From Candidatus Auribacterota bacterium (GTDB taxonomy: Bacteria > Auribacterota > UBA6266): a stretch of 5,045 nt of DNA. This document shows, piece after piece, positions 1 to 5,045 of this stretch; position 1 is the first letter of the stretch, and every line of letters starts with the position of its first letter. Made by a program: the position numbers and the translations under genes. The notes beneath the pieces were generated by a model that was given only the letters and a program-made list of their open reading frames with translations, did no database searches and was not told the DNA's origin. Where the stretch lies: positions 1 through 5,045 of the forward strand of contig JAGLRQ010000100.1 of the NCBI GenBank assembly GCA_023136205.1, in the 5' to 3' direction.

Positions 1-366
1 GTTCGCATCCTGGATATTATACAATTTGGACAGGGCCAAAGTCGATTTTCCAAGGATATAACTCATGTACCATATGGTATAAGCGTCAAAGTGTGTAAGC
101 TTTTTATTTTTAAGGAAATTTTTAAAGTCAATTTCGGCAAATATATCGGGATAATCTCCGGTAATAGTATTTACATCGCCAACCATGGAAAGAAGGGTAT
201 CCTGCGGTACTCCGAACATAGATTCAAGGGCTACCCATGGCACGCCGTTGTTAGAAAGGCTTGCTATTTCCAGAGCATCCAGGAAGCCTACCTTCTCCGC
301 AGCCTGGAGATATTTCTCTGACCACCAGGTAACAATTTCTTCCCCTAACATTAAATCCGTGAACAT
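1..366 (-). repeat. Protein-level tandem module C (first 122 aa only; continues beyond the window)
   Basis: MFTDLMLGEEIVTWWSEKY...GFLDAL...VPWVALESMFGVPQDT...GDYPDIF...HFDAYTIWY...LYNIQ aligns position for position with the starts of modules A and B. Confidence 0.8.
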
Positions 367-3300
367 TTGAGGAGGCAAATTGTAACAAAATTCATCCGAT
401 TGATGGGCTTCCACAGGCATGCCCATATCAGTAAGCACGGCTCCAAAACTCGTGCCTGTCAAAGAAGGATCCTGAAAATACAAACTGTTCCTGAAATTAA
501 CAACCGCGTTTACATTATAAGCGCCAGGATTAAGCCCTTCTTTTAAAACGCTTACGTCAAAATAATAAAACTTGCTGTCCGCAGTCTTTATAACCATCAA
601 ATATTCATAGCAGTATTCACCCGCAACGCCGAAAACACCGAAAATCTCAGATACAGCACCTATATCTATGTTCCCTTCAAGACAGATATTATAAAGCAGG
701 CCCTGGGCATATAACGCGTTTTCTATATTAAGGCGGGCGTAATTCTTGATTTCCCGGGTTTCATCGGGAAAGCCTTCTATCCAGTCTATGGGATTCTCCG
801 ATTCTATTATCGCTTTAGCTTCAGCGACCGCGTCAGCATCTACACCGGTAAGGGTATCAAACAAACCTAAAATCTGTTTAACCCTCATCCCGTCTAATCT
901 CATGGCATCATAAAAACCAAGAAGAATGGCATAATTATTTAACGGTAAAAGCTGACCTTTTAAGTGACTAAATAAATTTGCAAGGGTTTCAATATCATAA
1001 ACCGCATAGTCAAAATCAAAATATTTAGCTGTATACACACCTGAATTATCTTCTTCAAAAATAACGTTTGCAGATTTTAAATCCTTAGGAATTATATTTT
1101 GGCCGGCTCCTTTCCATATCATGTAAAGAGAGGCGCTTTCTTCGCGAACAATTAAATTCAGAATATTTATTCTTTCCGGCTCTCCCAGTTTTTGCACCAT
1201 AAAATCTAAAAAATCCAGAGAACTATAGCCGTCTAAAAATCCACGCGTAAAAACTTCTTTGACAACTTCATCATAGGGATCCTCAATACTTATCACCATT
1301 CCCGATGGAGGAATGGGAATCTTTGCCTCTGAAATTTTATCTTTCCAATAGTTGTTAACAGGGATAAAAAATGTATTAAACTGTTCTTCTACCGACAAAG
1401 GCTGTGTATCATTATGCACATACCCAAAAACAAATGGTAATTCAGATTCAAAATATATTTTATACGATGTCTTATGATTGCCGCTGTTTAAGTACTCTAC
1501 TACCATATTAGAAACATCGGGCAGTTCCGCTTCCCCTATCCAGGCCAGAAGCATGCCATTGTCAATTAACGCTTTTTTAACCAACTGCATGCCGGTTGAA
1601 TAAAGGTTCCACTCTATATGTATCACTTTTCCGTTATAAACATAATCTTCCGCGGGAGGCCCATCACCCGTGGAAGAAAAACTTGCCTCAGTATATCCTC
1701 TATCCACCCAAGGCCCCGCGGAATCGGTATAAAAAGCAACCAGTTCTTCAAAACTATACCCCTTAGCTATCCTGGAAATATCCGCCAACTTAGCTTTATA
1801 CATTCCCGAACTAACTTCAATAAAACCTACAGCGGCGGGATCCGTCACAACCCAGCCTATACCGTTTTCACCCATTGTAGCGGCATAAACACTTTTTAGA
1901 AGGTTTAGCTCTATCTGGGTTATTTCAGTTTCAGTATATTCTCTTTCTATAAGCGTGGCTCTCGATGTATACCACCCTTCATTTGTGGCGTAACCCGCGC
2001 GGCCCGTGTAAGAATCCTGCCCCGTACCGTAGAGTTCAGGATAAATACTTTGATCTTTAAGAGTAACCAAGTCATTATAGGTACTAATAATATCCGGGGC
2101 ACCTTCCTTCTGTAAGGACAGCCAGAATCTTCGTACCCCTTCAACACTGTTCGTGACAATTATTTCGTAAACCGCTGTTCCATCGGTTCCATAACCGTAT
2201 TCTTCTGTTTTTATTGCTGCTATTTCATCCCGCGTAAAACCGGTGGCTCTTTCCAGCATTGACTTACCGTCTTCCCCTATCTCGGATAAAACACCTAAGG
2301 CCTCGTCTATGTCATAGGGGGAGATTTCAGGTAACTCGTTACCCTTTATAGAATCCTTATTTATCACAATATCCGCGTAAAAACCGTTATAGCGAAGAGG
2401 CCAAAGCCTTTCGCTGTAAACTTTTCCCTTAATCCTGACATGAGCACTAGCTTCTTCAATTATTTTTGCCCATACAGGGTCATTTGTTTTAAGGGTTTGA
2501 AGCAATACAGCGTTTTTAGATCCCAATAAACCATTCAAATCTACTAATCTAACTACCCGTATGTTATTTCCCATCGCAAAAGGTATATGGACAGTGTCTA
2601 TTATATTCTTAAAATATAAATCGTAATTTGCAAAATTATCTTGGTCGATAAGGCTGACAGCATCAAAATAAGCTCTCCATTCTTCCCTAAGACGTTGTTC
2701 TATCTGGTCAACAGGCACGTAAAAAGCGGTAACCTTATCAACAATGGCAGCAACCGTCGCGATCTTGATATTATATAATTCGGCAATGTCAATGTTTGCT
2801 ATGCCGAGATTATAACTCATAAACCATATGGTATAAGCTTCAAAGGGAAAAAGTTTCCCGGTATCAAGCTGTCTAAGGTATTGTTTAAAATCAGCGTCAA
2901 ATATATCGGGATAAGAACCGGTAATATCGTTTACATCCGCGGCTATGTTAAAAACAGTATTTTCCGGTATGCCAAATAAATATTCAAGCGTAGCCCAAGG
3001 TACGCCGCCCACACCGTTTATATCAGAAAAATCCGTAATGGCAAGAGCATCAAAGAAACCAAGGCCGGCGGCCGCGGCATCAGGATATTTCCCATAAAAC
3101 CAGTTTGTCACATCCTCGTCTATTAAAGGGCTAATTAAGGAAAAAGGCGGCAGGTTATAGCCAAAGCTATGGTGCTGTGTGGCTATAACCGGTTTATTCG
3201 TATCGGTTACAGCAAATCCCAATACCGCGGCTATCAAAGAAGGATTTTCAGCATGGAGAACACCGCGTAAATTAATTATTGAATTTGTATCATAGGTTGC

Positions 3301-5045
3301 CGGATCTATACCTTCTTTTAAAACATCTATATTAACATAATAGAATTTTCCATCAGTCGTTTTTACTGCCAAAAAATATTGATAGGTATATTCGCCGACC
3401 ATACCAAAAAACCCATACATTTCGAGGATGCTGTCCATATCAATATTCCCTTCAAGGCAGACATTGTAGAGCAATCCCTGATCATAAAAAGCGTTTTCTA
3501 TATTAGGGCGGGAATATAACTTTATTTCAACAGTCTCACCAGACAGGCCTTCCACCCAGGTAATAGCCGTTGGAGAGTCAAAAACAACAATAAAATCTTC
3601 TGTTACAAAACCTCTCTCACCCCAGGAACCGCTTGCATCGGAATAATATTCCACCATAGCGTTTTCCTCAAAACCCTTTGCTATCTTGCTTCCGTCAACT
3701 AAATAGGCATTGTATATTCCGGGGGCTTCCTGGAGAAAGCCTACGGCAGAGGGGTCGGTTATTACCCAGCCTATACCGCTTTCGCCCATAGTTAAAACGT
3801 AGACACTTTGTAATAAATTCAGTTCTAACCGGTTTATATCCGCGTCGGTAAAGCCTTCACCCAAAAGGTCGGCTCTGGCTGAATAAAGTATTCTCTCCGT
3901 AGCAAAACCTGTCCTGTCCGTGTAACTATCCACTGCCGTACCGTAAAAATTATCATAAGCGCACATATTTCCGAGATATCCGAGATTATCATAGGCAGTA
4001 TTTATAACAGGAGCTCCTTCTTTCTGGAGGTGAAGAAAAAATCTTCTTACATCTAATTTACTTTTCTTAACGAATATCTCATAGACAGCTATCTCACTGG
4101 AACCATAGCCGTAGGAGGCCCTTTCTTCGGTTATTATTTCTTTTATTTCATCCCTGCTAAAGCCGGAAGCTCTTTCCAGCATTGACTTGCCGTCTTCCCC
4201 TATTTCAGATAAGACGCCTAAGGCCTCATCTATGTCATAGGCGGAAATTTTGACCATTGCCGAGCCATCCAGATTTACTTTTATGCCTTCATAAAAACCA
4301 TTATAGCGAAGCGGCCAAATCCTCCTATGGTAGGCCTGATTTTTCATAACAACATCCTTTACGGATTGCTCAAATCTTTTTCCCCACTCAGGGTCAGAAT
4401 TCTTTAAACTTGCGATATACTCAATCGCCACACCTATGCCTAAAAAACTATTCAACTCCGCTATTTTGACCAACCGGATTTTGTTTGAGTTAACAAAAGG
4501 TATATGAACCTCATCTATAATATATTTGTAATATAAATCATAATTTTCAAAACCTAATTCATCTACAGCTTTGACTTCCTCAAAATACTGCCTCCATTCT
4601 ACGCGAAGGCGCTGTTCTATCTGGTCAACGGGAACATAAAGGGCGGTTACTCTCTCGGTTATGGCTATAAGGGTTGAAACCTGAATATTATATAATTGGG
4701 CCAGGCTGGTATTCGAATGTCCCAGGTTATAGTTTTCAAACCAAATGGTATAGGCGTCAAAAGGAGTAATTTTATTGATTTTTAACATCTTTTTAAATGC
4801 CGCATCAATAAATATATCAGGGTAGGATGCGGTTACGACAGTTACGTCCAATATCATATTAAACACGGTATCTTCGGCTAAACCGTTAAAGAGAAAAGCA
4901 ATAGCAGCGGCAGGAACGCCCGCGTCAAAAAAATCCGCGGCTGCCATGGCATCAAAGAAGCCAAGGCCAACGGACGCGGCATCAGGGTATTTCGCGTTAA
5001 ACCAGTCTGTTACTTCCTGATCTATTAGAGGGTCAATTAATGAAA
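1..5045 (-). CDS. Internal fragment (5' and 3' ends both outside the window) of a very large modular repeat protein of unknown function; 1,681 uninterrupted sense codons
   Basis: Hand translation of the reverse complement, codons 5043-5041 down to 3-1, runs from SLIDPLIDQEVTDWFNAKYPD... to ...LSKLYNIQDAN without any TAA/TAG/TGA. Equivalently, my line-by-line translation, plus direct + strand triplet checks on about 18 lines, found no tta/cta/tca in phase 1. At roughly one stop per 20 random triplets in ~40% GC DNA, about 80 stops would be expected by chance. The other frames are broken: the longest ORF in the supplied track is 93 aa. Paralogous segments inside the frame differ mainly at third codon positions, as expected for real coding sequence. 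Confidence 0.93.
664..705 (-). other. Conserved island 4, module B copy: QGLLYNICLEGNID
   Basis: Partner of 3439-3480. Confidence 0.8.
796..1680 (-). other. Module-B-specific inserted segment (about 295 aa) with no counterpart in module A
   Basis: The flanks align. B ...GPWVDRGYTEAS (ends at 1681) matches A ...GSWGERGFVT (ends at 3601). B NPIDWIEGFPDETREIKNYARLNIENALYAQGLLYNICLEGNID (starts at 795) matches A AITWVEGLSGETVEIKLYSRPNIENAFYDQGLLYNVCLEGNID. Between the flanks A has 11 aa (EDFIVVFDSPT) and B has about 295 aa. Boundaries are uncertain by about 10 codons. Confidence 0.75.
1822..1863 (-). other. Conserved island 3, module B copy: GIGWVVTDPAAVGF
   Basis: Partner of 3736-3777. Confidence 0.8.
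2221..2316 (-). other. Conserved island 1, module B copy: YDIDEALGVLSEIGEDGKSMLERATGFTRDEI
   Basis: Partner of 4144-4239; see that entry. Confidence 0.85.
2665..2721 (-). other. Conserved island 2, module B copy: YVPVDQIEQRLREEWRAYF
   Basis: Partner of 4582-4638; see that entry. Confidence 0.85.
3439..3480 (-). other. Conserved island 4, module A copy: QGLLYNVCLEGNID (contains the only Cys shared by both modules)
   Basis: Aligns with QGLLYNICLEGNID at 664-705. Confidence 0.8.
3736..3777 (-). other. Conserved island 3, module A copy: GIGWVITDPSAVGF
   Basis: Aligns with GIGWVVTDPAAVGF at 1822-1863. The conservation extends upstream: ELNLLQSVYVLTMGES in A versus ELNLLKSVYAATMGEN in B. Confidence 0.8.
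4144..4239 (-). other. Conserved island 1, module A copy: YDIDEALGVLSEIGEDGKSMLERASGFSRDEI
   Basis: 30 of 32 residues are identical to the module B copy at 2221-2316. Of the 12 nucleotide differences, 9 are single synonymous changes, one per codon. The two replacements are both Ser to Thr. Confidence 0.85.
4582..4638 (-). other. Conserved island 2, module A copy: YVPVDQIEQRLRVEWRQYF
   Basis: 17 of 19 residues are identical to the module B copy at 2665-2721. Seven codons differ only synonymously, including CGC versus AGG for Arg. Confidence 0.85.

Follow-up and report, generated by a model that had tools for sequence, protein, structure and literature searches.

The giant genes of uncultured bacteria of the Planctomycetes-Verrucomicrobia-Chlamydiae (PVC) group remain mostly 'dark matter', and the roles suggested for their products (predation, attachment, metabolism) are deduced from the few regions that allow annotation. 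According to two preprints, the Omnitrophota encode giant multi-enzyme and tandem-repeat proteins, including one case with nine hexokinase domains (10.1101/2023.11.21.568195; 10.64898/2026.06.07.730766). In these reports, nucleotide tandems dissolve while the protein architecture persists, and 46% of the long proteins are read as membrane-anchored with cytoplasmic domains (10.64898/2026.06.07.730766); further, a type II secretion system (T2SS)-like locus is reported upstream of giant genes, and both an adhesive role and cleavage have been proposed for the products (10.1101/2023.11.21.568195). Here we describe a 5,045-nucleotide (nt) stretch of DNA from an uncultured Candidatus Auribacterota bacterium (contig JAGLRQ010000100.1; hereafter, at its full length, the window), which lies within a single giant gene. 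Judged from structure prediction, the repeated unit of this PVC-group protein is a previously unrecognised, highly divergent kinase-fold family, and we consider it somewhat better than an even bet that the whole forms an exported, multivalent array of kinase and pseudokinase units.

Tandem modules in a single open frame

Read on the reverse strand, nt 1-5043 form a single frame of 1,681 codons that contains neither a stop nor a start. This frame runs off both ends, which makes the window an internal piece of a gene. Whole-protein self-BLAST gave the trivial match only, and the modules, which were phased by the junction motif YNLPPF/YNLPPQ and cut at the positions used in an earlier note made from the sequence alone, were therefore compared pairwise. 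By BLASTP, the short module M1 and the long module M2 were 52% identical over 525/531 amino acids (aa; 528 bits, E = 0), with 50% identity over the last 147 aa (E = 2e-47), and the start of a third module, M3, matched the starts of M1 or M2 at 44-45% identity (E = 1e-30 to 7e-32). This similarity is far above chance. At the DNA level, repeats of 69-85% identity occurred at spacings of 1,902-1,923 and 2,754-2,775 nt. The difference in size between the two module types (634 vs 925 aa) is due to one discrete domain of ~285 aa, designated Ins (M2 aa ~497-782), and not to diffuse divergence. The parts of M2 follow one another as a helical region, a degenerate kinase-like region, a complete kinase-like domain (Ins) and a C-part; the degenerate region forms the second half of what we call the N-part, which is present in every module.

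The earlier note had described an ordered motif series recurring in one stop-free frame, with two complete modules and the start of a third, at offsets of 1,902 and 2,775 nt, and had been prepared to abandon the modular architecture if the first two modules proved to lack significant similarity. The pairwise comparison (E = 0 for M1 against M2) and the DNA repeats reproduce both the series and the two spacings. Similarly, its description of the protein as rich in D/E and Y/F and very poor in Cys agrees with the composition of the window protein (D 7.1%, E 7.3%, Y 6.3%, F 5.5%, C 0.3%). Its statement that the modules match no usual bacterial repeat class was sustained as well: the unit measures 634-925 aa and lacks the short repeats of the classical adhesins (RTX, Ig-like/Big, cadherin-like, YD/RHS, haemagglutinin), the Pfam search found none of these classes, and no repeat-adhesin family of Pfam or NCBIfam was matched even at E <= 1. 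Searches of the whole window against Pfam, PHROG, NCBIfam and PDB sequences returned no match beyond noise; weak matches to Vhr1, Saro_0803 and ComEA were dismissed as chance. A phage origin was also rejected, as tblastn against 50,697 phage records gave no match.

We compared the window with the orthologous gene on a second contig (L001), to which it is 87% identical at the protein level with a ratio of nonsynonymous to synonymous substitution rates (dN/dS) of 0.25. Between modules, dN/dS was 0.2-0.3 and dS 1.1-1.9 (1.7 for M1 vs M2), with synonymous sites near saturation. Given this low dN/dS together with the high dS, the duplications are old and the copies are under purifying selection. 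The possibility of an assembly artefact was rejected because three independent contigs have these junctions: (i) the M1/M2 junction is present at 96.5% identity on P0006, an Auribacterota fragment from an independent metagenome assembly, (ii) the M2/M3 junction is present at 98.8% identity on P0004, likewise an Auribacterota fragment, which also extends M3 by 363 aa beyond the window, and (iii) L001 shows the identical module order.

In a tree of N-parts, the short modules, M1 included, form one young clade (70-85% identical), and the long modules branch deeper (54-73% identical). Since the short clade is young and the single-copy outgroup P0008 carries Ins, the presence of Ins is most simply ancestral. 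The short module is thus most likely a deletion derivative, in which Ins would have been lost once before re-duplication; the converse, a later insertion of Ins into modules, was rejected because the tree favours ancestral presence and a single loss.

A predicted kinase fold in the long modules

An initial AlphaFold model, built from a 10-row alignment, reached a predicted local distance difference test (pLDDT) score of 49.8 and matched nothing in the PDB at E <= 1e-3, and it was taken as a lead only. After distant relatives had been added, a second model of M2 (m0c4bb9dae084; 23-row alignment) reached a mean pLDDT of 78.3, with values of ~70-90 in the helical part up to aa 280, 85-94 from there to aa 490 and 88-97 over Ins, the C-part being poor. 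Foldseek comparison of this model with the PDB yielded 616 matches at E <= 1e-3, of which the top 50 were all protein-kinase domains, including Lyn, CK1/Yck2, ULK1, GAK, CK2, PINK1, PKR and the bacterial lipopolysaccharide kinase WaaP, each at a probability of 1.00 over 205-300 columns. The independent BFVD library gave 134 matches at the same threshold, nearly all to Ser/Thr kinases. The predicted structure of M2 includes the bilobal fold of the protein-kinase-like (PKL) superfamily.

The predicted elements of Ins (M2 numbering) are three strands, a helix, two strands, a hinge, a long helix (654-678), the sequence KD687LKSAN692, two successive strands, D709FD and further helices; as modelled, this order is that of kinases. 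Among 21 copies of Ins, which are 20-49% identical, the position of D687 is occupied by D in 16 and E in 2, that of N692 by N in 15 and D in 3, and that of D709 by D in 20. The D-x4-N loop after helix E is thus found in Ins but not in the N-part region, and a DFG-type metal-binding Asp is found in both (D709 in Ins; D454 in 13/13 N-part copies). The beta-3 Lys is lacking in Ins, with Lys at that position in 4 distant copies only; a beta-2 Lys, K561, which is present in 13/21 Ins copies, might take its place. In the N-part, the Lys that closes the third strand (K345) is invariant. Some Ins copies in L001 are without the catalytic Asp or Asn, carrying E or G instead. No APE or activation-segment signature was found in Ins, no APH or choline-kinase sequence signature was found in the family, and no curated PKL sequence model was matched at threshold.

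The degenerate region and the remaining parts of the module

The degenerate region of M2 (aa ~295-490, ~190 aa) is predicted to contain three strands, a helix, two strands, a long helix and four strands, an order similar to that of Ins. Profile-profile comparison of the N-part core with the Ins core scored 27.5, as against 13.3 +/- 2.4 (maximum 19.2) in 60 column shuffles (z ~6). K345, D434, G439 and D454 are invariant in 13-15 N-part copies, and D454 aligns with the DFG-like Asp of Ins. With moderate confidence, we regard the second half of the N-part as a pseudokinase-like domain. Homology to Ins, namely to its C-terminal half, extends to the start of the Tail, the part that follows the last module of the L001 protein (probability 96.5%, E = 9e-10).

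Profile searches of the PDB and Pfam with the N-part, its helical region included, returned nothing significant. Within the helical region, window aa 728-772 (nt ~2728-2862, minus strand) form a helix-turn-helix-looking stretch (…YTIWFMSYNLGIANIDIAELYNIKIATV…), for which the matches to a Saro_0803-family regulator (E = 0.19) and to two PHROGs of unknown function were not significant. The C-part, with 76% mean column identity over 9 copies, was poorly modelled, and its profile gave no significant match in the PDB or Pfam. The start of the C-part (window aa 1421-1480, nt ~604-783) aligned weakly with the N-terminal extension of Ins (window aa 1137-1190, nt ~1474-1635) by hhalign at E = 0.0012. 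The C-part also recalls the N-part, with its LQKEG, in that L-K-E-G (nt 535-546 and 3310-3321) closes its third strand. As a direct profile comparison with the N-part was unsupportive (E = 0.18), we make no claim that the C-part is a remnant kinase N-lobe.

Apart from the giant frame, only four open reading frames (ORFs) of >= 60 aa are present in the window, all antisense or in another frame and with nothing gene-like about them: 91-321 (+), 185-370 (+), 1618-1899 (+) and 1947-2159 (-), of 61-93 aa.

Table 1. Positions of the gene fragment, its modules and their predicted parts in the window. HMM, hidden Markov model; residue numbers of Ins and its motifs refer to M2.
Feature	Position (nt)	Strand	Basis
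Internal fragment of giant gene	1..5043	-	Stop-free frame; both ends open
Module M1, short type, 634 aa (aa 1-634): helical region, degenerate kinase-like region, C-part	3142..5043	-	Self-BLAST; local domain HMM map
Module M2, long type, 925 aa (aa 635-1559)	367..3141	-	Self-BLAST; local domain HMM map
Module M3, start: 122 aa of helical region (aa 1560-1681), running past the window	1..366	-	BLASTP vs M1/M2
Ins, predicted complete protein-kinase-like domain, long modules only (M2 aa ~497-782)	796..1653	-	pLDDT 88-97; kinase-only top fold matches
KDLKSAN, catalytic-loop-like motif (D687, K689, N692)	1066..1086	-	After alpha-E-like long helix in model
FDFD, DFG-like motif (D709)	1009..1020	-	After beta-8-like strand in model
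M2 degenerate (pseudokinase-like) region	1672..2259	-	pLDDT 85-94; residue conservation; profile-profile score
M1 degenerate kinase-like region	3586..4173	-	Homology to M2 region; residue conservation
M1 degenerate-region motifs: YGYG loop; LQKEG; TDPSAVGF; LVDGS	4102-4113; 4015-4029; 3736-3759; 3688-3702	-	
M1 helical region, ~255 aa	4279..5043	-	All-helical in both models
M2 helical region, ~255 aa	2377..3141	-	pLDDT ~70-90; all-helical in both models
M1 C-part, ~139 aa, alpha/beta	3142..3558	-	HMM map
M2 C-part, ~139 aa	367..783	-	HMM map
Junction motif YNLPPF; second copy YNLPPQ	3142..3159; 367-384	-	N135, P137, P138 invariant, 9 copies

The orthologous gene and its predicted export

L001 is a 19.4-kb contig of a metagenome-assembled genome (MAG) on which the giant ORF starts at nt 1635 and is still open 5,699 aa later. 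Mapping with local HMMs made from the module parts gave the architecture SP-Ins-C-[N-C]x3-[N-Ins-C]x2-N-Ins-Tail (SP, signal peptide), that is, at least six modules, and the window covers the last of its three short modules, the first of the long ones and the beginning of the module that follows. When the degenerate N-part copies and the partial copy in the Tail are counted in, this protein would therefore contain six degenerate, four complete and one partial kinase-like copy.

The L001 ORF begins MLDMPKRYFLILLFTVVSTCLLFNGSPAFS/ETP, with a hydrophobic segment, K/R before it and an A-F-S site after it. By inspection of the sequence, this start was called a signal peptide; an N-terminal hydrophobic segment of this kind, with preceding K/R and an A-x-S/A-type site, is common to L001, P0005 and P0008, and in all three this single segment is followed by acidic residues. 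Neither the window nor L001 contains further hydrophobic segments. The giant protein would thus be exported by way of a Sec-type signal peptide.

Upstream of the giant gene, an ORF at L001:38-655 (+) is extremely Gly-rich (GGxGG runs, beta-helix-like) and without a Pfam match; it may encode the terminal portion of a further large surface protein whose gene extends past the contig edge. It is followed by ~1 kb (L001:656-1634) with no ORF >= 62 aa (the longest, on the minus strand, has 61 aa), which may be a long leader or regulatory region. In P0005, the last ~35 residues (aa ~645-678; …VIVGTSYHIEISILLLQKYSFPAPISYFSGPKLI) depart abruptly from the family alignment, likely because the repeat-rich region contains a frameshift or the contig end there is chimeric.

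Relatives and domain fusions

The family has a restricted distribution. A word-indexed search of 5.8 billion proteins found 7 relatives, all of them partial and on 1-4 kb contigs, and all but one from MAGs named Candidatus Aureabacteria (Auribacterota, PVC group); among 1.84 billion cluster representatives, a profile search by HMMER recovered 19 proteins only. The nearest proteins (79-99% identity) come from MAGs named Candidatus Aureabacteria, now Auribacterota. Named relatives belong to Auribacterota or Omnitrophota MAGs, except for one labelled Bathyarchaeota. The Ins of that protein (P0020, labelled Candidatus Bathyarchaeota) is highly similar by eye to that of the Omnitrophota-labelled P0023, and the archaeal label is probably a binning error. 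A profile search with an 18-sequence Ins alignment returned zero matches despite the near-identical P0004 and P0005 in the database; this result is a limitation of the tool and not a negative, and word-indexed negatives need care. Scanning of metagenome contigs yielded no loci.

Only the named Auribacterota fragments and three unlabelled proteins (P0008, P0009 and P0011) have full modules. Twelve further proteins share Ins only, sometimes with the Tail, and include proteins of 3,653 and 7,287 aa as well as Omnitrophota-labelled fragments. P0008 (3,127 aa) is a single-copy version, with the architecture signal peptide - NTP_transferase - C - N - Ins - Tail - Metallophos - ~850 further aa; the Auribacterota tails are without a Metallophos domain. 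P0012 has NTP_transferase at its start, followed by Ins and Tail, and a T2SS-like locus (PilM/N/O, pseudopilins, T2SS-J/K/C and secretin) immediately precedes its gene. P0018 carries PGM_PMM and HIT domains, and P0023 an alpha-amylase domain. Several internal hydrophobic segments are present in both P0012 and P0018.

The contig that encodes P0018 (L003) carries three consecutive giant genes on one strand, at 705-9794, 10001-31864 and 32017->41864, whose products measure 3,029 aa (with PPDK domains), 7,287 aa (PGM_PMM, HIT) and more than 13,661 aa, respectively. Ins is present in the middle gene only.

Interpretation and alternatives

In the reading that we favour (probability roughly 0.55), the window encodes part of an exported multivalent array of kinase and pseudokinase units in a giant Auribacterota protein. 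In the L001 orthologue, the chain consists of a putative Sec-type signal peptide, six or more tandem modules and a tail of unique sequence. Each module comprises a ~250-aa helical part, a ~190-aa degenerate kinase-like part, an optional ~285-aa part with a predicted kinase fold and a ~140-aa alpha/beta end; the modules arose by old tandem duplications and are kept by purifying selection. Ins retains the Asp and Asn of the catalytic loop as well as a DFG-like Asp, and it is predicted to be catalytically competent and to work as a phosphotransferase (kinase) unit. The array may phosphorylate or bind substrates that are sugars or derive from the envelope, either at the surface of the cell or on a partner cell. 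Such chemistry appears the most likely kind because the unit is joined in relatives to enzymes of sugar-phosphate and nucleotide metabolism, and the same domain fusions suggest a link to sugar-phosphate or nucleotide chemistry.

These results also bear on the broader claims of the earlier note. The proposal that one giant protein repeats a multi-domain unit complete in itself agrees with the module comparison and the L001 domain map, the suggested surface or secreted location fits the putative signal peptide of the orthologue, and the enzymatic array that it raised may be upheld as a possibility. The suggestion of an undescribed fold fared less well, the confidently folded parts of the model matching the protein-kinase fold (616 PDB matches, the top 50 kinases), and to call the gene unplaceable among known giant genes was too strong, as Ins and Tail are shared with giant multi-enzyme proteins of the Omnitrophota type. 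In the profile and structure searches that it had proposed, no sequence family was recovered, and the fold of the model matched kinases.

A number of observations weigh against the kinase array. On the structural side, TM-scores to kinases are only 0.35-0.5 (normalised to target length) with high root-mean-square deviation, the model was built from a shallow alignment of 23 rows, and it is from length and secondary structure that the fold matches would be assigned to Ins and partly to the N-part. On the side of sequence, Gly occupies the beta-3 Lys position in the window and in 14/21 Ins copies, Pfam Pkinase matched 2/18 family members at E = 0.07, and the Ins profile found no match among PDB sequences. 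The Ins profile compared with PKA, a query whose identity was confirmed against the PDB, gave a non-significant E = 0.058, the sole local alignment pairing the hinge and D687/K689/N692 of Ins with the hinge and D166/K168/N171 of PKA. In the N-part, D434 lies two positions off the catalytic Asp, and Gly or Ala takes the place of the Asn. Further, the helical region and C-part (~45% of the short module) are without a fold assignment, and no secretion genes were found in the 1.6 kb available upstream of the L001 giant gene. Finally, an exported kinase would find little ATP.

Several of these points would be accommodated by a non-catalytic scaffold or adhesin, in which all kinase-like domains are pseudokinases that act as rigid binding modules of a multivalent surface fibre attaching to host, prey or substrate, a role put forward generally for giant proteins of bacteria; we consider this alternative possible but doubtful. 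The Gly in place of the beta-3 Lys (in the Ins of the window and in 14/21 copies), an N-part with its Asp shifted and its Asn missing, the loss of catalytic Asp or Asn from some Ins copies (E or G in L001) and export into an ATP-poor compartment would all be expected of it, and adhesion has been proposed for giant proteins in an Omnitrophota preprint (10.1101/2023.11.21.568195). Yet most of the 21 copies of Ins, divergent as they are, have preserved the D-x4-N motif and the DFG-like Asp under purifying selection, a retention that would be surprising if the role were purely structural. Relatives, moreover, fuse the unit to true enzyme domains and not to adhesin repeats, and the Pfam search of the window revealed no repeats of adhesin type.

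Two other explanations strike us as improbable. The first is a polyprotein, a precursor cut between …FGYNLPP and S-L/S-I-D… into separate paralogous enzymes of 630-925 aa. Although the junction is unusually conserved for a linker (N135, P137 and P138 are invariant in 9 copies) and cleavage of giant proteins is among the proposals in the Omnitrophota preprint (10.1101/2023.11.21.568195), neither the window nor L001 nor P0008 yielded a protease domain, and the single-copy P0008, which has no repeat to separate, carries …FGMNSPP… between C-part and N-part. The second, a membrane-anchored multi-enzyme whose N-terminal segment is an uncleaved anchor and whose bulk lies on the ATP-supplied cytoplasmic face, would suit the need of kinase and nucleotide-sugar chemistry for ATP or NTP, the similar reading given for 46% of long Omnitrophota proteins in the other preprint (10.64898/2026.06.07.730766) and the internal hydrophobic segments of P0012 and P0018, but L001, P0005 and P0008 have a single N-terminal segment with the charge pattern and site of an exported protein.

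The exported kinase-pseudokinase array can be extended to a more ambitious proposal, which taken as a whole we think unlikely: that the protein represents an undescribed exported 'poly-kinase' class with ~ten or more kinase-fold domains in alternating degenerate and competent pairs, confined to Auribacterota and Omnitrophota, acting as a multivalent phosphotransferase on glycans or proteins of the envelope or of a partner cell, and descended from an enzyme in which one such unit was joined to a nucleotidyltransferase and a phosphoesterase.

By structure prediction, a large unannotated block resolves into a very divergent kinase-fold family missed by sequence profiles, and a ~285-aa domain with named catalytic residues offers a concrete biochemical handle for nucleotide binding and phosphotransfer. 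The phenomenon of giant multi-enzyme proteins is also extended from the Omnitrophota to a sister phylum, the Auribacterota. If the kinase array is true, a chain in which a signal peptide precedes ~ten kinase or pseudokinase domains would join the few secreted or extracytoplasmic kinases as an unusual member.

Comparison with known systems

The giant proteins of the Omnitrophota resemble the present one in being encoded by very long PVC-group genes that are fragmented in assemblies and in repeating enzyme-sized domains of which the nucleotide repeats have dissolved. Ins and Tail also occur in Omnitrophota-labelled proteins and in giants with PGM_PMM, HIT, PPDK and NTP_transferase domains, and the T2SS-like locus finds its likeness in the surroundings of the relative P0012. 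In contrast, the window belongs to the phylum Auribacterota, with which the Omnitrophota-labelled proteins share Ins and Tail only, and its repeated unit is unannotated; the domains that characterise the Archaeovorin or Dockerin types of giant protein (HEAT, TPR, GT1, PPDK, C39, SecA, dockerin and TSP3) were all absent from the window, L001 and P0008. Term searches of the two Omnitrophota preprints found no mention of a kinase-like module, a kinase-fold array or Auribacterota.

A literature search for such an array brought up eukaryotic analogies only and no bacterial description: (i) plant tandem kinase-pseudokinase proteins such as Yr15/WTK1 (PMC6170490), together with JAKs, and (ii) titin and obscurin, which carry kinase domains within giant muscle proteins (PMC4042850, PMC10129394). 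The first group is alike in placing a degenerate beside a more complete kinase-like domain in one chain, the second in embedding pseudokinase domains in a giant protein. All of these are eukaryotic and cytoplasmic, with one or two kinase domains and no sequence relationship to the present family, and the comparison is an analogy only.

Closer in chemistry, AmgK-MurU and LicA-LicC are pairs of an anomeric sugar or choline kinase and a nucleotidyltransferase, and their pathways are cytoplasmic. They share with relatives P0008 and P0012 the combination of a PKL-fold kinase, here a predicted one, with NTP_transferase; they differ in that the present family has no APH or choline-kinase signature and the available parts of the window and L001 have no NTP_transferase. 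We treat this resemblance as a lead.

To the PKL superfamily itself, Ins is likened by its predicted fold, with a long helix followed by the D-x4-N loop, two strands and a DFG-like Asp, and by a hinge-like motif in register with that of PKA. It differs from the superfamily in having Gly for the beta-3 Lys in most copies, in matching no curated sequence model, in its extra N-terminal hairpin and helices, and in the lack of an APE or activation-segment signature. The giant protein as a whole would stand apart from known PKL members in carrying up to ~11 tandem kinase-like domains on one exported chain.

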